Shown here: one piece after another, positions 2,261 to 42,622 of the stretch
How the letters are laid out: each line of letters begins with the position of its first letter
Position numbering within the stretch: the stretch's first letter is position 1
The notes under the pieces: model-generated
The model's database searches: none
Told to the model about the DNA's origin: nothing
The model's input: the letters and a program-made list of their open reading frames with translations, nothing else
NCBI GenBank assembly: GCA_001805005.1
Contig: MHDO01000021.1
Location: forward strand, 1-43,082
DNA: 43,082 nt
Origin: Nitrospinae bacterium RIFCSPLOWO2_12_39_16
Lineage (GTDB): Bacteria; Nitrospinota; Nitrospinia; UBA9942
Direction: 5' to 3'
Made by a program: the position numbers and the translations under genes

Positions 2261-2313
2261 TACCCCGTTACACCCAGAATGCCCCGCACTTCAGGACAGG
2301 GTGTAACGGGGTA
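2261..2313 (-). promoter_or_regulatory. Perfect 15-bp inverted repeat spanning the sigma stop codon, just upstream of the anti-sigma SD
   Basis: TACCCCGTTACACCC (2261-2275) and GGGTGTAACGGGGTA (2299-2313) are exact reverse complements separated by 23 nt. The sigma stop (2291-2293) lies in the loop. Confidence 0.6.
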
Positions 2314-2894: not shown

Positions 2895-3004
2895 GGATAT
2901 TATAAAACCACAGAAAACACTGAAGGCACAGAAAAAACCGGTTAAAAATAAATATTTTAATTCAGTGTCTTCAGTGCTTCAGTGGTTTAAATCAGGTCTT
3001 TGTT
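2895..3004 (+). repeat. Gene-boundary hairpin element, copy 1 (CACTGAAG-type arms)
   Basis: 5' GGATATTATAAAACCAC. Left arm 2905-2933 and right arm 2961-2988 match 24/29 as reverse complements. 3' GTGGTTTAAATCAGGTCTTTGTT abuts the antiporter stop. Confidence 0.75.
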
Positions 3005-4145
3005 ATTCCGAATCTAAGATATCTTCCGAGTGAAGAGGCATAAACCATTTCTGTGCAACGAAGGTTGGAATCACCGCACTCGCAATAAGCACACCTGTCA
3101 AAACAGAATACTGCACCTGATTTATAAAACCTGAATTTAAGCCGAATACACTTGCGATTAACCCGAATGTTAAGCCTGTGCTCATTAAAAGTGTTGTATA
3201 AATATTTCCACTGGGAATATATCTCTTTGCAAGGAAGTAAACACCAATAAATTTCATCAATTGTTTTATTACAAAAAAGGCAATGAAAAGCCCGAAAGCT
3301 GACATAATCAATGGAAATGAGACCTTTAAGCCCCCGACAATGAAAAAGAGGGGGGTGATAATTGCAAAGGAAACAGTTCTTAACCTGTTCTTTACGACCT
3401 TCGTCCCGGATGTCTCAGTAAAATGTTTTGACATCATTAGTCCCAAAACGAATGCCGGCAGTATTGCATGCCCCTCTCCTAAATTTGCGAAATAGATGAA
3501 TATCAGTAACAGGAGAAAAATATATTTTATCTCAGGCTCAATTACCTTGTTTTTTAATTTCGGGTTATCAAAGACCTGATGGGAAAATCGGGTTGCCAGT
3601 ATTATTACAAATATGGAAATTATAATAAAGATGAATGTAAATAAGTTTGGTTTTATAAATATGACACTCAATGTAAGTGCAACCCACATATTTGTTATAA
3701 AGGTAGATGCCATGATCAATTTGCCAATCTCTGTTTTTGAAAGATTCGTTTCTATAAGAACTGAGTAAACTACGGCGATAGAGGTTTCTGATAGGGCGGT
3801 AGCGACAATCAAAGATGCAGGAAGGCTCCAGCCTATAACATAGTATGTGTAAAGGAATGCCCCGATAAAAGGAATTAAAAAGGAAAATGCACCAATAAGA
3901 AAGCTCTCTTTAAATTTATCCCTCATTAATCGTGTGTCAATCTCGGCACCTGCCAAAAAGGTTAAAATAATTCCGCCGAAGTTTGCCAGATATAGCATCC
4001 ACTCTTCAGTCTTAAGCCCCAGATTTCCAGAGACAGCCCCTAAAAGAATCTCTATTATTGCTACTGATATACCAATTCTTAATGAAATAAGGCTTGAGAA
4101 AAAGACTAATAAGCCAACAATTAGTGGGGTAAAATCCGCCTTCAA
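3003..4145 (-). CDS. Cation:proton antiporter (Na+/H+ exchanger family, CPA2-like)
   Basis: 380 aa, about 11-12 TM helices, FLAGAEID motif. TTG start at 4145 is supported by SD GGGAGG 6 nt upstream. Confidence 0.85.
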   Translation of the reverse strand: MKADFTPLIVGLLVFFSSLISLRIGISVAIIEILLGAVSGNLGLKTEEWMLYLANFGGIILTFLAGAEIDTRLMRDKFKESFLIGAFSFLIPFIGAFLYTYYVIGWSLPASLIVATALSETSIAVVYSVLIETNLSKTEIGKLIMASTFITNMWVALTLSVIFIKPNLFTFIFIIISIFVIILATRFSHQVFDNPKLKNKVIEPEIKYIFLLLLIFIYFANLGEGHAILPAFVLGLMMSKHFTETSGTKVVKNRLRTVSFAIITPLFFIVGGLKVSFPLIMSAFGLFIAFFVIKQLMKFIGVYFLAKRYIPSGNIYTTLLMSTGLTFGLIASVFGLNSGFINQVQYSVLTGVLIASAVIPTFVAQKWFMPLHSEDILDSE

Positions 4146-4238
4146 GATTAACCTCCCTTTTTTGAAATTTGTAGGAGTTATCAGCCATTAAGGCGGTTAA
4201 AGGTGAACTCCATCACCTCCTTTTAAGAAAGGGGCTTT

Positions 4239-4790
4239 TTAAAGTATCATTGCTAACTTTTTGGATATTTCCTCTTTTGTCAGCATACCTATGAAACTGT
4301 CTTTCACAAGGCCGTTTCTATCTATGAAGAAGCTCATTGGTATTCCAAATACCCTATAGGCATCGCTGGTAGTTCCGTCAATATCCAGTAAGATTGGGTA
4401 TGTCATCTTATAATCCTTTGCAAATTTAGATACCTTTGATTCATTTTCCTTTATGTTGACCCCGAGGATTACAAGCCCATTATCCTTATTTTCATCATAA
4501 CCTTTCTGGAGGTCGGGTATCTCCTCTCTGCAGGGGTGGCACCATGTTGCCCAGAAATTAATTATAACCGCCTTCCCCTTAAAACTGCTTAACTTTACAT
4601 CATTGCCGTTTAAGTCCTTCAATGTGAAATCCTGTGCAGGTTTTGGTTCGGAGGCTTGAGATTTTTTTTCTTCCTGTGAAATATCTGCTGATTTATTGCT
4701 ATCACAATTAAACGGCATGATAATCAATAATAGAAAGGCAAGAATTAATTTTAAACTTTGAATTTTGAACTTTGAGCTTTTATTATTCAT
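4239..4790 (-). CDS. TlpA/ResA-like periplasmic thiol:disulfide oxidoreductase (canonical WCHPC)
   Basis: FWATWCHPCREEIPDL thioredoxin-fold CXXC, signal anchor LILAFLLLIIMPF. ATG at 4790 overlaps the upstream stop (ATGA, 4787-4790) and has SD GGAGGG 6 nt upstream. The track start at 4823 is less likely. Confidence 0.85.
   Translation of the reverse strand: MNNKSSKFKIQSLKLILAFLLLIIMPFNCDSNKSADISQEEKKSQASEPKPAQDFTLKDLNGNDVKLSSFKGKAVIINFWATWCHPCREEIPDLQKGYDENKDNGLVILGVNIKENESKVSKFAKDYKMTYPILLDIDGTTSDAYRVFGIPMSFFIDRNGLVKDSFIGMLTKEEISKKLAMIL
4747..4781. repeat. Heptanucleotide array AATTTTG/AACTTTG x5
   Basis: AATTTTA AACTTTG AATTTTG AACTTTG AGCTTTT. Encodes SSKFKIQSLKLI of TlpA. Confidence 0.85.
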
Positions 4791-5608
4791 ATTCCCTCCG
4801 GATATACAATGGGTAAATCCCACCTGAATATTCTATCATCTTTTGTAGCCAGATTTCTTATTATCAGCTCAAAATATTCTGCCTTATCATCGAGTATCTC
4901 TTTTTTAAATTTTACTATCCCCTCCCTGTGATGCTTATCCCATGCCTCAAACCTCAGCTCCCATCCTTTATTTGCAGGATATTCTTTATTATTTACCCTC
5001 AGGTAGGATAATTCATCCAGAGGATAATTCTCAAGCCTGCCGTCATGAACATTTAAACTTATTATAAATACTATGTTATTTTCAACATCATATTTTTTTA
5101 TCAGGTCAGGTGCACCTATAGATTTAAGGTATTCGGATGTGGTGTATGTAATATCAGCATATACATCTCCATATCCCATATCATTCCTCCATAAGAGCCT
5201 TTGAATCTGTTTTACTATTCTATAAGGCAGATTAGACTGCGGGACTGGATAGGTTTCTTTTAAATAATTTGTTATAACATCTGCCTCTTTACTGGTCATC
5301 TCAACCCCTTTTTCCGCCCTCATCCTGTCCACTACCTCTATCCACCCTGCAGGGGGGAGAAGGACCATTTTTATAACCTCATCCCCGTGGCATTTGCGGT
5401 AACATTTTTGCTGATACAATACCCTCGCCTCTTTTTCGCTCAAATTTTTTATTATGGAGTGTTTGAACATAAATAGCTTTGTTAAACTGTAAACATAATC
5501 AATATCATCCTTAATGCCAGAACCTTCGGAGATTGCAAATAGGATTGCCGGTATGGAAATGGAGGTGGCTATAAGAAAAACAATAGAAATTTTTTTAAAT
5601 AATTTCAT
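4787..5608 (-). CDS. Secreted hypothetical protein with a CX3CH (CYRKCH) putative haem c-type site
   Basis: Signal/anchor MKLFKKISIVFLIATSISIPAILFA. QQKCYRKCHGDEVIKMVLLPPAGWIEVVDRMRAEKGVEMTSKEADVITNYLKETY resembles single-haem binding domains followed by a W..v.RM...g..ls..ea..i..YL helix pair. The motif was verified codon by codon at 5387-5404. Confidence 0.6.
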   Translation of the reverse strand: MKLFKKISIVFLIATSISIPAILFAISEGSGIKDDIDYVYSLTKLFMFKHSIIKNLSEKEARVLYQQKCYRKCHGDEVIKMVLLPPAGWIEVVDRMRAEKGVEMTSKEADVITNYLKETYPVPQSNLPYRIVKQIQRLLWRNDMGYGDVYADITYTTSEYLKSIGAPDLIKKYDVENNIVFIISLNVHDGRLENYPLDELSYLRVNNKEYPANKGWELRFEAWDKHHREGIVKFKKEILDDKAEYFELIIRNLATKDDRIFRWDLPIVYPEGI

Positions 5609-5650: not shown

Positions 5651-6466
5651 TTCTTTGTAGTCCATCACACATCTGAATCCGTAATCATTAGACTCCATAT
5701 CAGGGCTTTCACCGAGTCTTACAGCGCTTCGGGTGCTGACTGCCGGGCTTAACCATGAGCCCCCTTTAATAACCCTAAGCTCTTTTTCCTTGTCATACCA
5801 TGTATCTGTCCATTCCCAAACATTCCCTGCCATATCATGGACACCATAAGGACTCTTACCCTCTTTATATTTATCCACCTCTGTTGTGCCTCCAAATGTT
5901 ATAGAACCTGATGTCTCCTGTGCAAACTGTCCTACCCTGGCACTCCCGCCCAATCCAGATTCATATGAGTTGCACATTAATGTATCAAATTCATTGCCCC
6001 ACGGATATATCCTTCCATCTGTCCCCCTCGCAGCCTTTTCCCACTCTTCCTCGGTTGGGAGTCTCTTTCCTGCAGATTTGCAGTATTCATTTGACTTATC
6101 CCATTTTATGTTTACTACAGGGTGTCTTGCCCTGTCTGATGGAAAACTATGGTTTGGGTCAAATTTTTTATAGTCAGCATTTGTTACCTCATGGATGTCT
6201 ATATAGAATGGTGGAAGGTTAATTTTCTTCTTAGGTTCTTCATCAGAATACCACTTTGACTTACCGCCTAACTTTTTGACTGTATCTTCTATTTCTGAAG
6301 TATCACTCCCCATTATAAACTCACCGGCAGGTATCAGAACCATCCCTTCCTGGGTTAAGGGAGATTCTGCCGATATTGCAAATTGCAAATTGCAAATTGC
6401 AAAAGTCAAAGTTATACCTAAAAAATATTTTGCTTTAAGTATTTTTCTGTGTAAATCTGTGTTCAT
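5648..6466 (-). CDS. FGE-sulfatase (SUMF1/EgtB/PvdO) fold protein, secreted, lacking the FGE catalytic Cys pair
   Basis: MVLIPAGEFIMGS, YIDIHEVTNADYKKF, AGKRLPTEEEWEKAARGTDGRIYPWGN, GNVWEWT, RVIKGGSWLS, GFRCV. No Cys between GGSW and GFRC. The N-terminus is encoded by repeat DNA, so the start is uncertain. Confidence 0.85.
   Translation of the reverse strand: MNTDLHRKILKAKYFLGITLTFAICNLQFAISAESPLTQEGMVLIPAGEFIMGSDTSEIEDTVKKLGGKSKWYSDEEPKKKINLPPFYIDIHEVTNADYKKFDPNHSFPSDRARHPVVNIKWDKSNEYCKSAGKRLPTEEEWEKAARGTDGRIYPWGNEFDTLMCNSYESGLGGSARVGQFAQETSGSITFGGTTEVDKYKEGKSPYGVHDMAGNVWEWTDTWYDKEKELRVIKGGSWLSPAVSTRSAVRLGESPDMESNDYGFRCVMDYKE
6375..6402. repeat. Heptanucleotide array ATTGCAA x4
   Basis: Exact 4 x 7 nt. 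Encodes FAICNLQFAI in the FGE-fold protein N-terminus. Confidence 0.9.
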
Positions 6467-6497: not shown

Positions 6498-6950
6498 TTC
6501 TAAAAAATCCAGCACCCCTGTTATTATTAGATATAATACACCTGACCATACGAAGACAAGGGCAATGAAAAGGGCTATATCACTTATCGGATAGCCCCCC
6601 CTTGTGATTTGATACCATTTTCCATGTATTCTCTGCAGTGGTGTAAGCATTGACTCTTTTCCAAACCGCTTAAAAAAGTATCCCTCAATCTCATCCTTGC
6701 CTGCACCTGCCATCAGCCTTTTTCCTATCATATCCTTCCATTCCATTCCGCAGCTCATATGACAGTCTTCAAGGACCATCGGGCATTCACACGGGCAGGC
6801 AATGTTATGGGATATGCCCATCACAGTATCCGCAGCAGCAGAAGGCCAGAAGACATATTTTATAACAGAGAAGATAATTATAATTGATAAAGATAGAAGG
6901 AATATTTTTATTTTCATCTTGAAATTAATGAAATTATAAAATTTAGCCAC
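6477..6950 (-). CDS. CcmH/NrfF-like membrane-anchored protein with atypical Cys cluster
   Basis: IACPCECPMVLEDCHMSCGMEWKDMIGKRLMAGAGKDEIEGYFFKRFGKESMLTP followed by a TM helix. The layout matches CcmH (Cys motif, then an i..mv..G.sd.eI..yfv.rYG..vl..P helix), but the usual LRCxxC is replaced. The start may be ATG 6917 (MKIKIFLL) rather than GTG 6950. Confidence 0.55.
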   Translation of the reverse strand: MAKFYNFINFKMKIKIFLLSLSIIIIFSVIKYVFWPSAAADTVMGISHNIACPCECPMVLEDCHMSCGMEWKDMIGKRLMAGAGKDEIEGYFFKRFGKESMLTPLQRIHGKWYQITRGGYPISDIALFIALVFVWSGVLYLIITGVLDFLEKGKTKT

Positions 6951-7094
6951 AGACTTTCACGGACTAAAATATTAAAAAAACAATAATTAGGAGAAAGGGG
7001 GCATTTTCTTTTTTTCCTAATTTCTCCATTTCTCCTTAATCTTTTTATTTGTTTTTGGTCTGTGCGAGTCTGTGGCTAATCAATCTTTGTTCTT
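6921..7094 (+). repeat. Gene-boundary hairpin element with G5/C5 core
   Basis: 5' GAAATTATAAAATTTAGCCACAGACTTTCACGGACT. Core AGGAGAAAGGGGG...TTCTCCTTAATCTTTT. Right arm GGTCTGTGCGAGTCTGTGGCTAATCAATCTTTGTTCTT. Confidence 0.8.
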
Positions 7095-9762: not shown

Positions 9763-9866
9763 GAATGATATGTGAATTTAACAGATTATTTAGCTGCTGC
9801 CCCTCCCCTTATTTAAGGAGAGGCAGCAACTTGTTGAGGGAAGGAGGGAAAAAGACTAATTAACTC

Positions 9867-9971: not shown

Positions 9972-11408
9972 ATGGATGAGGATATGAATAAAATTATTAT
10001 CATAGATGATGATGAGTCTATCTGTAAGACATTGGAGCTCCATCTAAAGAGAAACGGATACGATGTCAGTTTTGCACATACAGGTGGTGAGGGGATAAAG
10101 ATGGTAAGCGAGAATGAACCCCAGATTGTCATACTTGATATAAGGCTTCCTGATACAGATGGGATTGAGGTTTTAAGGCAGCTTAAATCTATAGACAATA
10201 ATAAATATATAATCATGATTACAGCATTTCAGGATATGGAGACTACAATAAAGGCTATGCAGGAAGGGGCTTTTGAGTATATCCATAAGCCCATAAGCAT
10301 AGATGAATTGGACAGGGCAGTGGATAATGCAGTGAGGAGCCTTAAGATACTTACAGGGGAAAGGGAAGAGACCATAAAGATACCGAAGATGAATGTTGGC
10401 GAGGGGAAGATAATCGGAAAGAGCAAGATTATGAAAGAGATATTCAAGACAATCGGTGTTGTCTCTCAGAGCAGGACAACTGTCCTGATTGAAGGGGAGA
10501 GCGGGACAGGGAAGGAGTTAATAGCGAAGGCTATCCATTTTAATAGTCCGTATAAGGGGTATCCGTTTATATCCATCAATTGTTCCGCCCTTGTAGAGAC
10601 ACTCCTTGAGAGCGAGCTTTTCGGGCATGAAAAGGGGGCGTTTACAGGGGCTTTATACCGTAAAGACGGAAAATTTACACTTGCCAATAACGGCACGCTT
10701 TTCATGGATGAGATTGGAGAGATGAGTTTAAATCTACAGACAAAACTTCTAAGAGTCCTGCAGGAGAGGGAGTTTGAGAGGGTGGGGGGGAAGGAGAAGA
10801 TAAAGACAAATGTGAGGGTCATAACAGCCACGAATAAAAAACTTGATAATCTGGTGAAACAGGGAAAATTCAGGGAAGACCTTTATTACAGGCTGAAGGT
10901 GGTAACTATTGATGTCCCCCCGTTGAGGGAGAGAAAGGAAGATATACCGTTGCTTGTGGAATATATGATTAACAAAGTGAATAATGACCTTAGTAGAAAT
11001 GTGAGGAAAATATCAAATAAGGCACTTGAACTTTTACTGAATAATCCGTGGGTTGGAAATGTCAGGGAGCTTGAAAATGTAATTACAAGGGCTATTCTTC
11101 TTTCAAGAGAGGATAGGCTCGGCGAAGAGCATTTTACCCTGTTTTTAAAGGGGGATACAGGCAAACCAATAGAACATAAATTAGTGGTGGATGCTAATGG
11201 AGTGCGTGGGCATGAAATAAAAGATGATTCGTTAAATGACATTGAGAAGATACACATAGCGAAGGTGTTGAATTTTACAAACTGGCATAAGGGGAAGGCT
11301 TGTGAAATTCTTGGAATAACAAGGCCAAGATTGGAGAGGAAGATAAGAAAATATGACATTAAATCAGTGGAAAAAATATCAGAAAAAATATCAGAAAAAA
11401 TAACTTGA
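9972..11408 (+). CDS. Sigma-54-dependent response regulator (REC - AAA+ - Fis-type HTH), NtrC family
   Basis: REC (IIIIDDDES...ILDIRLPDTDG). Walker [15 protein letters not shown] loop in [16 protein letters not shown]-terminal HTH KACEILGITRPRLERKIRKY. SD AAGGAG 7 nt upstream of the ATG. Confidence 0.95.
   Translation: MDEDMNKIIIIDDDESICKTLELHLKRNGYDVSFAHTGGEGIKMVSENEPQIVILDIRLPDTDGIEVLRQLKSIDNNKYIIMITAFQDMETTIKAMQEGAFEYIHKPISIDELDRAVDNAVRSLKILTGEREETIKIPKMNVGEGKIIGKSKIMKEIFKTIGVVSQSRTTVLIEGESGTGKELIAKAIHFNSPYKGYPFISINCSALVETLLESELFGHEKGAFTGALYRKDGKFTLANNGTLFMDEIGEMSLNLQTKLLRVLQEREFERVGGKEKIKTNVRVITATNKKLDNLVKQGKFREDLYYRLKVVTIDVPPLRERKEDIPLLVEYMINKVNNDLSRNVRKISNKALELLLNNPWVGNVRELENVITRAILLSREDRLGEEHFTLFLKGDTGKPIEHKLVVDANGVRGHEIKDDSLNDIEKIHIAKVLNFTNWHKGKACEILGITRPRLERKIRKYDIKSVEKISEKISEKIT
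11364..11402 (+). repeat. 12-nt tandem repeat TCAGAAAAAATA x2 plus one 15-nt variant unit (3 units)
   Basis: Encodes the C-terminal SVEKISEKISEKIT tail of the sigma-54 activator. Confidence 0.85.
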
Positions 11409-13090: not shown

Positions 13091-13211
13091 ATATAGGAAA
13101 TTATAAAATTAACCACAGGTAAACACAGATGAACACTGATAGAATAAAGAAAAAAAGTTTTTATCTGTGTTAATCTGTGTCCATCTGTGGTTTCATTAGG
13201 TCTTTGTTCTT
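13091..13211 (+). repeat. Gene-boundary hairpin element (CACAGAT decamer arms), reference copy
   Basis: ATATAGGAAATTATAAAAT-TAACCACAGGTAAACACAGATGAACACTGATAG ... TTATCTGTGTTAATCTGTGTCCATCTGTGGTTTCATTAGGTCTTTGTTCTT. The arms are about 26/32 complementary. Confidence 0.85.
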
Positions 13212-18068: not shown

Positions 18069-18203
18069 AAACCACAGATGGACACAGATTTACACAGACA
18101 AAAAATCATATAAGGGGAAAGGGGGGGGAATTTTTCTCCCCTATTCTCCAAATCCCCCTTTTCTCCTTAATCTTTTAGTTTCTGTGTTTATCTGTGGCTA
18201 ATA
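18069..18203 (+). repeat. Gene-boundary hairpin element with G8/C5 core
   Basis: AAACCACAGATGGACACAGATTTACACAGAC ... TAAGGGGAAAGGGGGGGG ... TCCCCCTTTTCTCCTTAATCTTTTAGTTTCTGTGTTTATCTGTGGCTAAT. Shares TTCTCCTTAATCTTTT and TCTGTGGCTAAT with 6921-7094. Confidence 0.8.
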
Positions 18204-31863: not shown

Positions 31864-32116
31864 ATGGCACATAAAAAGGGTCAGGGCAGCACATCTAATG
31901 GAAGAGACAGTATTGGAAAAAGGCTTGGCGTTAAGAGATACGGGGGTCAGATAGTTTCTGCCGGCAGCATTATTGTAAGACAGAGAGGAACAAAGTTTTA
32001 TCCCGGAGAGAATGTCGGGCTTGGTGTAGACTACACTATATTTGCAAAGATAGATGGTGTTGTGAAGTTTGAGAGAAAGGGCAGAGACAAGAAGCTGGTA
32101 AGTGTATATGCAGTAT

Positions 32117-32118
<2 letters not shown>
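31864..32118 (+). CDS. rpmA: 50S ribosomal protein L27
   Basis: [29 protein letters not shown]...[15 protein letters not shown] is a near-consensus L27. Confidence 0.95.
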
Positions 32119-33206
<1,088 letters not shown>

Positions 33207-35727: not shown

Positions 35728-35806
35728 ACAGTGTCAGTGTCAGTGAACAGTGTCAGCAAGAATACTATCGATACTGATACTGACACTAATCACTAACACT
35801 GAATTT
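35728..35806 (+). repeat. Hexa/heptamer arrays (CAGTGT, GATACT) between proA and nadD
   Basis: CAGTGTCAGTGTCAGTGAACAGTGTCAG ... GATACTGATACTGACACTAATCACTAACACTGAATTT-ATG. Confidence 0.75.
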
Positions 35807-38679: not shown

Positions 38680-41307
38680 TCAATTGACTGATGGTATTTG
38701 TTTTTTTGGTATAGTAATAGTAAAAGTAGTCCCTCTGTTTATCTCACTCTGAACCTCTATTCTTCCCCCAAGCCTTTCTATTATGCCATAGCTGACAGAC
38801 AGACCGAGCCCTGTTCCTGTCCCAACATCTTTAGTTGTAAAGAACGGGTCAAATATCCTGCTCAAGTTCTCTTGCGGGATGCCTATTCCGGTATCCGATA
38901 TAGCCACAACAAGCTCATCTCTTTCTTCCATACTTTTTATTGTCAGGATGCCGCCGCTGTCAGTAATTGCCTGTATTGCATTGATAATTACATTAAGAAT
39001 GACCTGCTGTAAATGGTTATAATCCAGTATAAATTTTTTGCTGTTCGTATTTAAGTCAAGTTTTAATTCTAAATTTCTCTCCTTTATTTTATATTCAACC
39101 AGTTTCAGAGTTTCTGTAATTATCTCGTCAAGGTTGTGCGGGGAGAATTCAAATTGGTGCTCCTTTGCAAAATCAAGCAGATTTCTTATAACAGATTCTA
39201 TTCTATTTAGCCCCTTTTCCAAAAGGGGGATGTATTTCTTTCTGACATCCTCATCATTTCCATCAGTATTTAGCGTCCTTACACAATTTTGCATTCCCCC
39301 CAATGGATTATTTATTTCATGGGCTATTCCTGTTGCCAGCTGTCCTATTGCAGCGAGCTTCTCTGTCCTGTTCATCTGATGTTGTATCCTCTTCTGTTCT
39401 GTAATATCCCTTGCGATTCCAAGCAGGTCTGTTATATTGCCACTTTCATCTTTTAGGGGTGACGAGCTTATAACTACATTCCTTATTTCACCCTTCTTAT
39501 TTGAAATTTCAACCTCGTATATCTGTTTTATGCCGTCTTTTATTGACCTATTGAACCTTTTACCTTCATGTCTTGGTGCGAGGATACTGAATATTGACTG
39601 CCCTATAAGTTCATCCTTTTTATAGCCCCAGTCTTCAATCTTCTGATTCAGGTAAGTGAATGTTCCATCCCTGTTTACTATATATATGACATCATTGGCA
39701 TTCTCTAAAAGGTTCTGCAGGTAATCCTTTGTCTCTTTAATCTCCTTTGTCCTGTCTTCAATCATTTTCTCCAGATGCTCACTGTATTCCTTTAATTCTT
39801 TCTCCATCTTCTTTTTGACTGTAACATCCCTTACGACCATTACTGAGCCTATAGTTTTTTCTCCTGACTTTATAGATGTGGCAACTATCTCAGCTGTCTT
39901 TTCGCCTATTGTGGATGTTGTAAACCAAGGCATCTTATCAGGTTGTTTTATTAATTCTCCCACCCTCTCAGGTTTCCCGTGACAGGGGAATATACTCTTT
40001 CCAAGGATATGTTTTTTGTTTACATCAAGTATTTCCTCAGCAGTAGGATTTACAATTATGACCTTATTTTCCTCATCTGCCACAATAATCCCATCCCCTA
40101 CACTAAGCAGTATGCTTTCTAATGTATTCTTTTCCTCTGACAATTCGCTGTAAAGCCCTGTCAATCTTCCAGCCATCTTGTTAAATTCTATTGCCAGAGA
40201 GGAAATTTCATCACCGGTATCTATGCTCAGCCTGTGCTCAAAATTCCCCTTTCCTATGAGTTCTGCCCCCTCTTTAAGGAGGAGTATAGGCTTTCCGATT
40301 TTATTCGCCGCATATATGCCGAGTGTAGAAAGGATTGCCACCATAATAATGCCGCTTAATAAGACAAGGAGTAAGAGTCTGTTAATAGGAGAGTAGGTTT
40401 CATCAGGGTGCTGCCTCACGAAGATAAACCATTTCTTCTTGCCAAAACTCATGTCAAAATCGTATGTAAGTTTGACAGGTGCAAAACCGATTATAGAATC
40501 TATTCCGCCGTGTGCATCATCCGCCGCCACTGCCCACCCAGGCTCATTGCTGATTATCAAATTCATCAGGGACTTGTCAATTGAGTGGCTCCTTGGCGGG
40601 AATATGGGGCACATTATAATTGACCCTTCAGAATCCACTAAATTAGCATGTCCGGTTTCATCAATCTGGACATCTGATATTATCTTATAAAGAGTATCTA
40701 TCTTTAAAATTGCTTTAATAATGCCAGTCGTGTTTCCATCTTCTATTAGCGGGATAACCATAGTGATTAGAGGCTTTCCATCTTTATCATCAAAATAGAC
40801 ATCACTTAAATATACTTTATTACTTTTGCCGGAAAGTATATCTTTAACCACATCTTCATCATCTTGAAATATGGGTTTGTTCTGGTTTTTAGTATCGGAA
40901 GTAGCTACTAGAATTCCATTTTTATCGGTTACATAAATTACTATGTATTCTTCCTTATTATGGTTTTTAAACTGCCTTAGATGTTCAGATGCCTGATTGC
41001 CCATAATCCCCTCTTGCCCCCCTTTATCAAAGGGGGGTTGGGGGGATTTAACTGCATCTCTTATATCAGGAGAAAATGTAAGATTGTGAAGCTCATCTAT
41101 CTCCCTATGTAATATGATATTGACCTTATCAGCAGTCTCTTTTGCAATCTCTTTAAAGTTTGCACCTATGGAATTTCTTATAACCTTAGTGCTGCCGATT
41201 GATATTAGAAATATTCCGAGGACTAAGGGGAGAAGCCCCACTATAACCATTGTGGAGACAAGGTTTCGCCTGATACTCTTTTTTCTGAAATTTTCTAATA
41301 TGTTCAT
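38680..41307 (-). CDS. Sensor histidine kinase (Cache-like periplasmic domain - HAMP - 2 x PAS - HisKA - HATPase)
   Basis: TM1 VIVGLLPLVLGIFLISIG, about 290-aa external domain, TM2, HAMP (PILLLKEGAELIGKGNFEHRL), two PAS-like modules, H-box GIAHEINNPL, G boxes DTGIGI / GTGLGLS. Confidence 0.95.
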   Translation of the reverse strand: MNILENFRKKSIRRNLVSTMVIVGLLPLVLGIFLISIGSTKVIRNSIGANFKEIAKETADKVNIILHREIDELHNLTFSPDIRDAVKSPQPPFDKGGQEGIMGNQASEHLRQFKNHNKEEYIVIYVTDKNGILVATSDTKNQNKPIFQDDEDVVKDILSGKSNKVYLSDVYFDDKDGKPLITMVIPLIEDGNTTGIIKAILKIDTLYKIISDVQIDETGHANLVDSEGSIIMCPIFPPRSHSIDKSLMNLIISNEPGWAVAADDAHGGIDSIIGFAPVKLTYDFDMSFGKKKWFIFVRQHPDETYSPINRLLLLVLLSGIIMVAILSTLGIYAANKIGKPILLLKEGAELIGKGNFEHRLSIDTGDEISSLAIEFNKMAGRLTGLYSELSEEKNTLESILLSVGDGIIVADEENKVIIVNPTAEEILDVNKKHILGKSIFPCHGKPERVGELIKQPDKMPWFTTSTIGEKTAEIVATSIKSGEKTIGSVMVVRDVTVKKKMEKELKEYSEHLEKMIEDRTKEIKETKDYLQNLLENANDVIYIVNRDGTFTYLNQKIEDWGYKKDELIGQSIFSILAPRHEGKRFNRSIKDGIKQIYEVEISNKKGEIRNVVISSSPLKDESGNITDLLGIARDITEQKRIQHQMNRTEKLAAIGQLATGIAHEINNPLGGMQNCVRTLNTDGNDEDVRKKYIPLLEKGLNRIESVIRNLLDFAKEHQFEFSPHNLDEIITETLKLVEYKIKERNLELKLDLNTNSKKFILDYNHLQQVILNVIINAIQAITDSGGILTIKSMEERDELVVAISDTGIGIPQENLSRIFDPFFTTKDVGTGTGLGLSVSYGIIERLGGRIEVQSEINRGTTFTITIPKKQIPSVN
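41005..41048. repeat. G/C-tract nested palindromic element inside the kinase CDS
   Basis: AATCCCCTCTTGCCCCCCTTTATCAAAGGGGGGTTGGGGGGATT. Inner stem CCCCCCTTT/AAAGGGGGG. Encodes SPQPPFDKGGQEGI. Confidence 0.8.
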
Positions 41308-41399
41308 GAAATTATATAGCCGCTAAGACACAAAGGCACAAACTAATAAAGAATAATTTTTTCTTAGGGTCTTCGAGTCTTAGTGGCATGTTTTTGTTC
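41303..41399 (+). repeat. Gene-boundary hairpin element, AAGACACAAAGG subfamily, copy 2
   Basis: TTCATGAAATTATATAGCCGCTAAGACACAAAGGCACAAACTAATAAAGAATAATTTTTTCTTAGGGTCTTCGAGTCTTAGTGGCATGTTTTTGTTC. The CAT at 41305-41307 is the kinase start codon. Confidence 0.8.
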
Positions 41400-41520
41400 A
41401 TGTATAGGAAATTATAAAATCTTTAGCCACCAAGACACAAAGGCTCAAAGAAATAGGGAATAATTTTTACTTAGTGTCTTCGTGTCTTTGTGGCAAAAAT
41501 TAGGTTTTTGTTTTTCCTAT
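41397..41520 (+). repeat. Gene-boundary hairpin element, AAGACACAAAGG subfamily, copy 3 (head-to-tail with copy 2)
   Basis: TTCATGTATAGGAAATTATAAAATCTTTAGCCACCAAGACACAAAGGCTCAAAG...CTTAGTGTCTTCGTGTCTTTGTGGCAAAAATTAGGTTTTTGTTTTTCCT. The 3' terminus encodes the deacetylase C-terminus. Confidence 0.85.
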
Positions 41521-42546
41521 AAGGCTTTTTAAATGAAATACTACCGACTCCCCTAATGCCTCAAGGTTATATCCACCCTCAAGAACAGATACAATTCTCC
41601 CTTTACAGACCTTATCTGAAGCCTCACAAATAATATCTGTTAGTTTGCCGAATCCTTCGGATGTAATATTCATTGAACCAAGGGGGTCGTTTATATGTGC
41701 ATCAAAACCTGCAGAAATCATAATCAAATCCGGTTTATAATTGATTATCTTAGGATAAATCCTTTTTTTAAAGAGAGAAATATATTCCTTATCACCCTGC
41801 CCATGAGGCAGAGGTAAATTCATTGTAAAACCTTTTCCATCTCCATTTCCAGTCTCGTCAGACCTGCCAGTGCCTGGAAATAGGTATTCCTGATGAAGGC
41901 TTACATAAAAGACAGCAGGATCATTATAGAATGCGTTCTGTGTGCCGTTGCCATGATGAACATCCCAGTCTATGATAAAGACCCTTTTTACATTATACAT
42001 TTTTTGGGCATACTTTGCACCGATTGCAATATTATTAAAAAGGCAGAATCCCATTGCCCTGTCCCTTTCAGCATGGTGTCCGGGCGGCCTTACAGCACAA
42101 AAGACATTATTTACCCCGTTAGAAAGCCCCACCCCTTGTGGGGTGGGGACTAAAGCCCCGTCCTTTCTAACGGGGTTTATCTTTCCTTCAAATACAGCAT
42201 CTACTCCTGTTATAACCCCTCCTGCTGCGAGAAGGGCTGCATCATAAGAGTCTTCTGAAATAACAGTATCTGCATCCAATTCCCCCCTGCCCCCCTTTTC
42301 TAAAGGGGGGAGTGGGGGGATTAACTTTTCACAAGCCTCTTTAACATTGTGAATGTATTCCCTATCATGGATTAATGAAATCTGTTCAACTGTTGCAGGA
42401 ATCGGGGTGAGATTTATCAGTTTTTTTGTCAGATTCTCATTTTCTATCCACTTAATGATTGTTGTAAGACGGTTGGAATTTTCAGGATGATTGCCGGTAT
42501 TATGTTTCAGATATACAGGTGAATACACAAAACCTGTCTTTTTCAT
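41500..42546 (-). CDS. Histone deacetylase-family (AcuC/HDAH-like) zinc amidohydrolase carrying two in-frame palindromic insertions
   Basis: MKKTGFVYSPVYLKH, RPPGHHAERDRAMGFCLFNN, IDWDVHHGNGTQ, ISAGFDAH, LEGGY. ATG 42546 gives the conventional N-terminus. Confidence 0.9.
   Translation of the reverse strand: MKKTGFVYSPVYLKHNTGNHPENSNRLTTIIKWIENENLTKKLINLTPIPATVEQISLIHDREYIHNVKEACEKLIPPLPPLEKGGRGELDADTVISEDSYDAALLAAGGVITGVDAVFEGKINPVRKDGALVPTPQGVGLSNGVNNVFCAVRPPGHHAERDRAMGFCLFNNIAIGAKYAQKMYNVKRVFIIDWDVHHGNGTQNAFYNDPAVFYVSLHQEYLFPGTGRSDETGNGDGKGFTMNLPLPHGQGDKEYISLFKKRIYPKIINYKPDLIMISAGFDAHINDPLGSMNITSEGFGKLTDIICEASDKVCKGRIVSVLEGGYNLEALGESVVFHLKSLIGKTKT
42114..42175. repeat. 62-nt nested perfect palindrome inside the deacetylase CDS
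   Basis: Outer stem CCCCGTTAGAAAG / CTTTCTAACGGGG (13 bp). Inner stem CCCCACCCC / GGGGTGGGG (9 bp), loop TTGT. Confidence 0.85.
42278..42322. repeat. Second copy of the G/C-tract palindromic element, inside the deacetylase CDS
   Basis: AATTCCCCCCTGCCCCCCTTTTCTAAAGGGGGGAGTGGGGGGATT. Encodes IPPLPPLEKGGRGE in the same element frame as the kinase copy. Confidence 0.8.
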
Positions 42547-42622
42547 ATTTAAAGAGTAGCAAATGACATATAGAATCGTCAATTGTAGAACTGATTGAGG
42601 ATTAGTATAGCAGTAAATTAAA

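Follow-up and report, generated by a model that had tools for sequence, protein, structure and literature searches.

Two minus-strand genes of the window, by which we mean the whole 43,082-nt stretch of contig MHDO01000021.1 analysed here, each carry one copy of a short-form G/C-tract hairpin element. The first gene (38680..41307) was identified by domain search as a dCache_1-HAMP-PAS-HisKA-HATPase histidine kinase. The second (41500..42546), assigned from domain search and the starts of its orthologues, encodes a class-II HDAC-like/AcuC-like deacetylase (PF00850); its mechanical ORF reaches a TTG at 42582, and every orthologue begins at the ATG of MKKTG or MRKTG. Copy 1 (41005..41048, minus strand) is read in the kinase as K-SPQPPFDKGGQEGI, and copy 2 (42278..42322, minus strand) is read in the deacetylase as (L)IPPLPPLEKGGRGE(L), directly before LDADT. 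Both sequences are present exactly as an earlier note on this DNA had quoted them, and both are read in frame on the minus strand to give PP..KGG peptides, as it had proposed. The two copies share 39 identical positions in a 46-column alignment, that is 85% identity where about 80% had been claimed, and both fold as the nested hairpins described, with DNA minimum free energies of −16.6 and −17.4 kcal/mol (z of −3.3 and −3.5, with 0 of 200 shuffles folding as well). The kinase copy shows slight decay, one of its arms being CCCCTC.

The two copies were also said to use the same element frame, which turned out to be wrong. The core C-run begins at codon position 1 in the kinase (CCC CCC TTT GAT AAA GGG GGG) and at codon position 3 in the deacetylase (C CCC CCT TTA GAA AAG GGG GG). 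The likeness of the two peptides comes from the core itself, which gives PP(F/L)xKGG in either of two frames. Both elements are foreign to the coding style of the window, in whose genes CCC accounts for 15% of the proline codons and GGG for 26% of the glycine codons. Seven of the 21 C6+/G6+ runs of the window fall in the 89 nt of the two copies; a shuffled window has about four such runs over its whole length. Both copies match a loose core pattern for which the chance expectation over the window is 0.01 matches. A hairpin at 39209-39230 in the kinase gene was considered as a further copy and rejected, being built of native LLEKG codons. The Rfam scan of the window gave no match at the elements, its sole match being a fluoride riboswitch at 4165-4226.

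The kinase copy corresponds to residues 87-101, inside the periplasmic Cache sensor domain (dCache_1, residues 42-281). A protein search with this sensor domain found only six relatives, at 29-40% identity, and the length of the loop varies among them; in the metagenome contig search with the deacetylase, the best relative was 52% identical. In the AlphaFold2 model the two inserts, residues 91-101 and 134-155, are coil with pLDDT below 50. Both window copies lie in variable loops that are predicted to be disordered.

The deacetylase site of the short form is empty (ACET-GIxS-LDADT) in P0007-P0010, whose deacetylases are 81-87% identical to the window protein, in L001 and in all distant homologues, and the insertion is common to the window, L127, L126 and L330. 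The kinase copy is identical in L330 and shares both its junctions and its GAT loop with the copy in L125, and the segment is swapped for unrelated sequence in L001, L002, L124, L329 and L331. When the orthologues without palindromic DNA were checked for the peptides, they were found to lack these as well, so that the segments are acquired and are not conserved protein motifs. Both window copies are acquired relative to close orthologues. No clean pair of filled and empty sites was found: in the deacetylase and the kinase, as in LeuRS and the portal gene of Haemophilus phage SuMu discussed below, the element stands in for some of the native loop. The filled sites show a net gain of 33 nt in the deacetylase, 6 nt in the kinase, 18 nt in LeuRS and 27 nt in the SuMu portal gene; the first two gains are no larger because some native loop sequence has been lost. 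The kinase loop of L001/L002 was considered as a decayed element and rejected, since L002/L124, L329 and L331 share a native K-S-N loop start; this start is missing from the element-bearing kinase alleles.

The kinase copy occurs in the clade of the window and in L125, whose kinase has 75% amino acid identity, and is missing from the sister lineages of both. Simple insertion with vertical descent does not explain this distribution. Between the window and L125, 43 of the 45 nt of the copy are identical versus 74% in the flanks (p = 2e-4), with all third codon positions conserved. The deacetylase copy of the L124 type, common to L124 and L125, likewise runs against the gene-identity tree. Both patterns would suit an element that is immobile within the clade, that is carried by short gene patches which co-occurring relatives exchange through homologous recombination or gene conversion, and whose arms are kept matched by quasipalindrome template switching. 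The LeuRS genes of L090 and L248 point the same way: a 66-nt patch stands in place of 48 nt, and in otherwise ~95% identical DNA the divergence extends 8-15 nt past the element as synonymous differences, so that in this case allelic recombination of a patch, and not transposition, appears to be at work.

A further case comes from a second, unrelated palindromic insertion in the deacetylase gene (42110..42179, minus strand; element proper 42114-42175, CCCCGTTAGAAAG...CTTTCTAACGGGG). It is flanked by duplicated TTTA (TAAA in the orientation of the gene), and adds exactly 66 nt or 22 residues (NPVRKDGALVPTPQGVGLSNGV). The window shares it with P0001, P0003 and P0004; P0002, P0005, P0006 and all orthologues further away lack it. 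The P0002 deacetylase is 98% identical to that of the window, yet this insertion is missing from it and six residues adjoining the site are different, matching the allele of P0005/P0006. The same ends, ACCCCGTTA / TAACGGGGT, are found in a palindrome at 2261..2313 (no strand assigned) between the ECF sigma-factor and anti-sigma genes, which overlaps the last codons and the stop of the sigma gene. Patch exchange nevertheless meets two difficulties. The tract of high identity between the window and L125 kinases stops exactly at the right edge of the element and identity in the flank is then ~67%, and therefore there is no homology at that edge to resolve a recombination event. Moreover, exchange of patches leaves the spread of the element to many phyla and many different genes unexplained. 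As the account of the element, it is rather unlikely.

The conservation of the kinase copy, third codon positions included, so far above that of its flanks, could also mean that the hairpin or the peptide is functional and selected in place, be it as an mRNA structure, through Pro-Pro stalling that tunes translation, or as a DNA site for a host or phage protein. In Mu-like phages copies keep to fixed places, namely the Portal_Mu/Mu F junction and sites upstream of Gam and of the tail sheath gene, which fits this possibility. However, other orthologous copies decay freely, the L125 deacetylase copy having a degraded left arm and the window kinase copy itself two uncompensated changes. Close relatives function without the segments, the host genes of the family copies have no common function, and recent exchange can equally explain the kinase conservation. 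As proof of selection on the hairpin, that conservation was downgraded given the K-S-N allele pattern among the relatives, and we regard a selected function as very improbable. Function as a terminator was rejected, the elements not being terminator-like.

Sequence comparison places the window copies in the short form of a very widespread non-coding palindromic repeat family, with the consensus AAATC6-N2-4-[C6T3-nnn-A3G6]-N2-4-G6ATTT. In the long form, of 74-107 nt, two hairpins form terminal inverted repeats of ~33 nt around a variable, non-conserved spacer. A scan of one genome per species, with the 18 specified bases of the 21-nt core as query, returned at least 144 sites on at least 120 stretches, and 120 of the 144 sites listed carry the tag AAATC5+ / G5+ATTT. 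The tag lies outside the searched core, so conservation reaches beyond the query. The matches listed come from Nitrospirota, Desulfobacterota, Beta- and Gammaproteobacteria, Dehalococcoidia, Acidobacteriota, Ignavibacteria/Kapaibacterium, Planctomycetes, Elusimicrobia and Trueperaceae. The viral contigs of IMG/VR gave at least 145 sites (119 of the 145 listed being tagged), and several copies lie within one 8-kb locus in some genomes, for instance L067, L072 and L075. A BLAST search of plasmids with the 46-nt consensus gave no match, for which the low-complexity filter is possibly responsible. The earlier note was right that one palindromic module lies in frame in two unrelated genes, but missed that the module belongs to a cross-phylum family and is not local to the genome.

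Searches of the literature with the sequence words AAAGGGGGG/CCCCCCTTT and AAATCCCCCC/GGGGGGATTT and by topic turned up only general papers on MITEs, REPs and RPEs and no description of the family. It is apparently unnamed, while its kind, the coding-tolerant palindromic repeat as in the RPEs of Rickettsia, is already known.

The scans also settle the simplest objection, namely that a PP..KGG loop evolved twice independently and that the palindromy follows from codon choice. The native LLEKG codons in the kinase gene do form a small C4T4/A4G5 hairpin with no insertion. However, the palindrome of the two copies is longer than the peptide requires and uses the rare CCC codon throughout, the same 45 nt together with unsearched flanks recur in hundreds of unrelated contexts, and the chance expectation given above is far too low; the family-wide scan refutes coincidence, to which we give practically no credence.

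The two window genes are not the only ones to be read through the element. Among the matches listed for low-GC loci, 16 of 44 sites (about one third) lie inside ORFs of at least 250 residues. Pfam domains flank the in-frame copies on both sides in a radical-SAM enzyme, a CbiG-methylase fusion (with two copies), RecJ, PurL, LeuRS and a B12-radical-SAM enzyme. The intragenic copies are mostly in loops or linkers, and in comparison with the solved structures of RecJ and LeuRS the element peptide falls in an alignment gap. The portal protein of Haemophilus phage SuMu, a cultured example, contains the element and its Mannheimia phage orthologue does not. A check on the frame bias of intragenic copies showed that 44 of the 48 listed are in the two PP..KGG frames (23, 21 and 4 per frame). 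The third frame, with 4 of 48 against 22.6% expected among stop-free frames, is depleted with p = 0.009 when high-GC ORFs are included and with p = 0.09 in the reliable low-GC set, and the bias is thus modest.

The intergenic elements of the window are a different matter. The cores of the boundary elements at 6988-7045 and 18111-18170 had been taken for the same module, but in them the G-tract precedes the C-tract whichever strand is read, an order opposite to that in the coding copies, and they are embedded in larger hairpins with arms of heptamer repeats. The link of these elements to the coding copies is unproven because the order of the tracts is opposite. Of the claim that one module is both intergenic and in-frame coding, the coding part stands and the homology of the inverted-order intergenic elements is unproven. 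Words like AAATCCCCC are not enriched in the window (21 found versus 17.9 expected). Family copies in other Nitrospirota-like genomes adjoin tandem heptamers, and this adjacency is the sole, indirect tie between the intergenic elements and the family.

How the element spreads may be judged against known systems. The RPEs, as summarised from Ogata et al. (2000) in PMC10969869, are ~100-150 bp long, form ten sequence families and are confined to Rickettsia and its close relatives. They resemble the present family in being short palindromic repeats that lie in frame in unrelated functional genes, give a fold-compatible peptide and also occur between genes, and no mobilising enzyme is known for either. 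The element described here, in contrast, is 44-107 nt long, has C6/G6 tracts and occurs in many phyla and phages; it is set apart by size and host range, shows no evident relation to the RPEs in sequence, and is best seen as an analogue of the RPEs, not a member.

Closer in anatomy are the REP/BIME/REPIN-RAYT systems, which share a G/C-rich imperfect palindrome of 20-40 nt, an end tag, singlets and inverted doublets with a spacer, and no target-site duplication (PMC3337134, PMC3733652). It is conceivable that tag and hairpin are REP-like and the long form a REPIN, with a domesticated RAYT or some other HUH Y1 transposase moving both as single-stranded DNA and with the intragenic copies as accidental survivors. 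The unit here is indeed G/C-rich, imperfectly palindromic and 21-33 nt long; its 5′ tag is conserved, and it is found alone or as an inverted pair around a variable spacer. No consistent target-site duplication was found in 29 short-form copies (14 with none, 12 with one nt and 3 with two nt, which is the chance level). According to the same papers, however, REPs carry a GTAG or CGTC tag (the two superfamilies of PMC3733652), lie overwhelmingly outside genes, are inherited vertically within particular lineages, and flank a RAYT gene. The family here has the tag (A)AATC5-6, many intragenic copies and cross-phylum conservation; it is near-identical over more than 10 phyla and phages, whereas REPINs are described as vertically inherited and lineage-specific (bioRxiv 10.1101/2024.10.14.618302). 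A tblastn search with RAYT, IS608 TnpA and IS200 TnpA queries found none in 2.05 Mb of flanks of ~290 copies. We therefore consider a REP/REPIN origin doubtful.

Bacterial MITEs (Correia/NEMIS, ERIC, Anabaena) are similar in being non-autonomous, with terminal inverted repeats, hairpins, presence/absence polymorphism and occasional in-frame intragenic copies that encode peptides (PMC10969869, PMC2229807). The family would then be a deletion derivative of an insertion sequence, its ~33-nt terminal inverted repeats recognised in trans by a DDE transposase with a TA target. The long form has such repeats, the short form is a nested palindrome, relatives differ by presence and absence, and the L127 deacetylase copy can be read as TA|ATC6...G6AAT|TA, the only copy readable as a TA duplication. 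MITEs usually have a target-site duplication and ends shared with a resident insertion sequence, neither of which was found here; the 29 short-form copies have no duplication of fixed length. No pair of ends encloses an ORF, a search for ends 300-4000 nt apart around one having found only neighbouring small elements, and when ORFs beside half elements were clustered (~2 Mb, 8-20-kb pieces per genome), no transposase recurred and Mu-like phage structural genes appeared instead. A classical MITE is thus improbable. The GC clusters of yeast mitochondria and the double-hairpin elements of fungal mtDNA offer another parallel, being short G/C-rich palindromic or double-hairpin elements in an A/T-rich genome, with an obscure mechanism of mobility and some in-frame copies in protein genes such as VAR1; they are organellar, eukaryotic and unrelated in sequence. 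TAACTGA-type tandem heptamers, mostly intergenic and apparently common to distant lineages in Beggiatoaceae and cyanobacteria (PMC4679880), resemble the heptamer arms near family copies (RecJ in L027) and in the intergenic hairpins of the window, but are direct repeats without a G/C-tract hairpin core, so the relation is one of analogy only.

Taken together, we think it likely that the window copies are acquired short-form members of the family, tolerated in loops and spread without target-site duplication. Tolerance would follow if the element hardly disturbs translation. Whichever strand is read, no stop is forced in two of the three frames, and these open frames would give Pro-Pro-(Phe/Leu)-x-Lys-Gly-Gly with flanking Pro/Gly, that is, a flexible, turn-forming and hydrophilic loop. 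Purifying selection would then spare copies that fall in permissive surface loops or inter-domain linkers, in an open frame and with a net change divisible by three. The weakest step of this explanation is the spread. The 5′ tag with hairpin, the singlets and inverted doublets and the lack of a target-site duplication point to a hairpin-recognising single-strand mechanism (HUH/RAYT- or IS200/IS605-like) or a recombinational one acting in trans, rather than to a DDE transposase. Copies occur in phages, which could take the family from host to host, and in the clade of the window alleles with and without the element also seem to be swapped in short recombination patches. A more far-reaching version can be offered only tentatively: a phage-borne double-hairpin G/C-tract family, pre-adapted to translation, may have colonised many phyla and may persist in essential genes (LeuRS, RecJ, PurL, phage portal), inserting at, or replacing loops at, AAATC-like sites without duplication, in a hairpin-directed or homing-like manner that would bring the same copy to one and the same codon in lineages with no more than 75% identity.

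Palindromic repeats read in frame tend to be regarded as a curiosity of Rickettsia, and the family described here behaves in the same way over many phyla and in phages, its sequence being conserved to the point that a 21-nt pattern recovers it everywhere. Pro/Gly loops of 10-27 residues arise from it repeatedly in conserved enzymes, and in metagenome-assembled genomes they will mislead alignments, structure prediction and the calling of orthologues. The lack of target duplication together with the patchy, junction-identical distribution hints at a mechanism of mobilisation or exchange that is not yet understood, and the portal gene of Haemophilus phage SuMu provides a tractable system in which to study the movement of such DNA and the reasons for its tolerance. 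If the phage-borne, pre-adapted reading is true, the family would show selfish DNA persisting in a new way and would, in general, supply proteins with variation in their loops.

Both palindromes lie where, and with the sequences that, the earlier note reported, on the minus strand at 41005–41048 within a kinase gene (38680..41307) and at 42278–42322 within a deacetylase gene (41500..42546), and they are identical in 39 of 46 alignment columns (85%). As single strands, both fold as a nested hairpin, in which a C6/G6 outer stem is separated by a small internal loop from a C6T3/A3G6 inner stem capped by a 3-nt loop, at DNA fold energies of -16.6 and -17.4 kcal/mol (z-scores of -3.3 and -3.5, respectively); none of 200 shuffles folded as well as either copy. 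A loose core pattern finds both copies, with a chance expectation of 0.01 matches, and they contain 7 of the 21 C6+/G6+ runs counted in the window, against about four expected over its whole length after base-shuffling.

The kinase (dCache_1-HAMP-PAS-HisKA-HATPase, 875 aa, minus strand) carries the element as residues 87–101, within the Cache domain, and the second copy lies in the long minus-strand ORF of the deacetylase (PF00850). The translations agree with those given before, whereas the claim that both copies are read in one element frame fails: the core begins on the first base of a codon in the kinase and on the third in the deacetylase. The two peptides are alike because C6T3...A3G6 gives PP(F/L)xKGG in both frames used. 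The element's codons are unusual for the genome, CCC being 15% of Pro codons and GGG 26% of Gly codons. The mechanical deacetylase ORF (41500–42582) begins at a TTG at 42582; every orthologue begins at an MKKTG/MRKTG ATG (window position 42546), and the 12 additional N-terminal residues are probably not translated.

Length differences among the nearest deacetylase relatives stem from two independent indels. At the first site, directly before LDADT, the relatives P0007–P0010 (81–87% identical to the window protein) and all distant homologues have an ACET-G-I-x-S loop, and the element is found in the window protein, P0001, P0002 and P0005. The window gene is longer by a net +33 nt rather than by 44–45 nt, so about 11 nt of the native loop are gone. 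The window-type copy (window, L127, L126 and L330) lies downstream of native AAAAGTT and a second type (orthologous loci L124 and L125) upstream of it; therefore, this loop was struck at least twice. The L124-type copy is common to different clades, a distribution as unexpected as that of the kinase copy. The deacetylase copy of L126 (~480–580) has a further, related palindrome, ACCTCCCCTTTTTCCCCTCCTTTAGAAGGAGGGGAAGGGGAGGT, inserted in its hairpin loop, which is likewise in frame and gives the peptide ISPLPPLTSPFSPPLEGGEGEVVKGGRGE. The other indel, at 42110–42179, is an unrelated palindromic insertion, a 62-nt element (CCCCGTTAGAAAG...CTTTCTAACGGGG; DNA hairpin z = -7.5) that with a duplicated TAAA makes exactly 66 nt, or 22 aa, and shows clean presence or absence among orthologues 82–98% identical. 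The two inserts (residues 91–101 and 134–155) are coil with pLDDT <50 in the AlphaFold2 model, and the alignment to the solved HDAC6 and HDAH structures is interrupted at both positions. A palindrome at 2261–2313, between an ECF sigma-factor gene (2291–2848) and a zf-HC2 anti-sigma gene (1742–2245), has the same ends (ACCCCGTTA/TAACGGGGT) as the 66-nt element, its right arm forming the last codons and stop of the sigma gene.

At the kinase site, orthologous locus L330 is identical to the window, L125 has a copy whose junctions and rare GAT loop match those of the window, and L001/L002/L124, L329 and L331 have unrelated sequence. The window and L125 copies are identical at 43 of 45 positions, compared with 217 of 292 in the flanks (p = 2e-4). 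Selection on the hairpin might seem proven by this identity, a reading undercut by the absence of the copy from L331 (whose kinase is 92% identical to that of L125) and from the window's sister clades. Since the element-free lineages have a native K-S-N loop start in common, the element-free loop looks ancestral, and the copy represents either two gains at identical junctions or lateral passage; in view of both, its high identity is no proof of such selection. The orthologous loop consists of four tandem octamers (TCAAGGNN) in L329 (~11250–11330) and of three tandem heptamers (CGAACCN) in L331 (~5930–6000); it appears to be a hotspot receiving different short repeats in each lineage. Elsewhere in the kinase, at 39209–39230, native LLEKG codons fold as a C4T4/A4G5 hairpin (CCCCTTTTGGAAAAGGGG) where orthologues have TCTCTCTTAGAAAAAGGA of equal length; either substitution or conversion from an element copy could have sharpened a quasi-palindrome here.

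A family scan with CCCCCCTTTNNNAAAGGGGGG, one genome per species, found at least 144 sites in at least 120 stretches. A conserved flank that the query did not specify, (A)AATC5-6 upstream at a distance of a few bases or the complementary G5-6ATT(T) downstream, is present in 120 of 144 listed sites. Hosts among the listed matches are Nitrospirota with Thermodesulfovibrionales, many Desulfobacterota, Beta- and Gammaproteobacteria (including cultured Chromatium okenii, Thiorhodococcus, Lysobacter and a Pasteurellaceae isolate), Pelotalea, Geobacter, Dehalococcoidia, Acidobacteriota, Methylomirabilota, Ignavibacteria/Kapaibacterium, Planctomycetes, Elusimicrobia, Schekmanbacteria and Trueperaceae. 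IMG/VR viral contigs hold at least 145 sites, with the flank tag in 119 of 145 listed. The canonical long form (74–107 nt) is AAATC6-NN-[C6T3 nnn A3G6]-spacer-[C5-6T3 nnn A3G5-6]-N2-5-G5-6ATTT, whose spacer is unconserved, whose two hairpin loops are complementary and whose two cores double as direct repeats. Both copies in the window belong to the short form, a single hairpin with both ends. Two loci with flanks in common, L057 and L075, have the short form in one and the long form in the other, which fits a deletion between the cores as the source of the short form.

Among the listed scan matches in loci of ≤50% GC, stop-free ORFs of ≥250 aa contain 16 of the 44 sites. Pfam domains flank the element on either side in a radical-SAM enzyme (L007), a CbiG-methylase fusion with two copies (L011), RecJ (L027), PurL/FGAR amidotransferase (L050), the LeuRS editing domain (L090) and a B12-radical-SAM enzyme (L106). 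Against a solved structure, the RecJ copy adds 27 residues directly after the DHH motif; the LeuRS copy occupies a loop that is shorter in the T. thermophilus LeuRS structure. A cultured example is Haemophilus phage SuMu (NC_019455; L332 1680–1700), with AKSPLAPLFQRGEDY within the annotated portal gene; the portal of Mannheimia phage vB_MhM_3927AP2, 84% identical, has a loop nine residues shorter. In Mu-like phages (L332 and IMG/VR loci L131, L134, L156, L203, L133, L159, L178, L200 and L225), the element sits at fixed places, namely the 3′ part of the Portal_Mu gene beside Mu F, and directly upstream of Gam and of the tail sheath gene. The 48 intragenic copies read as PPFxKGG (23), PPLxKGG (21) or PLxxRG (4), the last frame making up 22.6% of stop-free frames (p = 0.009 overall; p = 0.09 in the reliable low-GC subset). 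An orthologous MalT-like/TPR regulator gene has G/C-tract copies in both L125 (3381–3450) and L331 (3447–3530), in the latter as two adjacent copies of a C5TCTTT...AAAGAG5 variant, and seems to be another repeated host gene.

As to mobility, no target-site duplication was found among 29 short-form copies, nor any pair of family ends with an ORF between, nor a transposase recurring beside half elements; approximate RAYT, IS608 and IS200 TnpA queries gave 0 matches in 2.05 Mb of flanks. In every filled/empty comparison the native loop is partly replaced rather than purely inserted into, with net changes of +33 nt (deacetylase), +6 nt (kinase), +18 nt (LeuRS) and +27 nt (SuMu portal). LeuRS loci L090 and L248 have flanks ~95% identical and differ in a 66-nt patch that includes synonymous sites 8–15 nt past the element; the patch resembles an imported divergent allele, and P0002 has the same mosaic pattern beside the 66-nt element. 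Native sequence at the left junction is often AAATC, as in the kinase and LeuRS natives, and these few cases suggest a target preference or use of microhomology.

The earlier note had also placed the coding module in the cores of two intergenic boundary elements. These elements (6943–7079 and 18078–18203) are large hairpins with CACAGA-type heptamer-repeat arms and AAGGAGAAAG5+ ... C5TTTTCTCCTT cores, G-tract first on both strands. This tract order is opposite to that of the coding copies, and therefore the two are not superimposable. One indirect connection to the intergenic hairpins is that tandem heptamers stand immediately beside family copies in other low-GC genomes: in RecJ of L027, four GAAGTCA units precede a short form with everything in frame, and the arrangement is similar in L011, L033 and L039. 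Since heptamers adjoin family copies, and tandem heptamers and octamers fill the L331/L329 kinase loop, the link is kept as unproven, not refuted. Intergenic hairpins with tandem heptamer-like arms (CACAGAT, AGTGTCA, CATGAGC, AAGACAC...) also lie at 13114–13179, 32111–32196 and 35730–35787, with two copies in 41308–41500; two of the intergenic hairpins have the inner core TTCTCCTTAATCTTTT in common, with AAGGAG on both strands. The hairpins of this group are similar in kind to Beggiatoaceae TAACTGA heptamer repeats (PMC4679880). The 9803–9826 hairpin resembles the C4TCC...GGAGGGG subfamily of L126 and L127. A fluoride riboswitch (RF01734, 63 bits) lies at 4165–4226 (minus strand), between ORFs 3003–4145 and 4239–4823.

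No literature description or Rfam family was found for the G/C-tract element, which does not prove it nameless. In anatomy it is nearest to REP/REPIN, a tag plus hairpin occurring as singlets and inverted doublets with no duplication. It lacks the GTAG/CGTC tag that is a REP criterion (PMC3733652), and is not confined to extragenic DNA; it differs from a MITE in having no target duplication. In behaviour, the nearest are the Rickettsia palindromic elements, in-frame and tolerated palindromic repeats (PMC10969869). The element is real and more general than first thought, the shared frame and the boundary-element link being two details that are wrong or unproven. Set against their close orthologues, the kinase and the deacetylase have each acquired their segment, and coding copies are common within the family.
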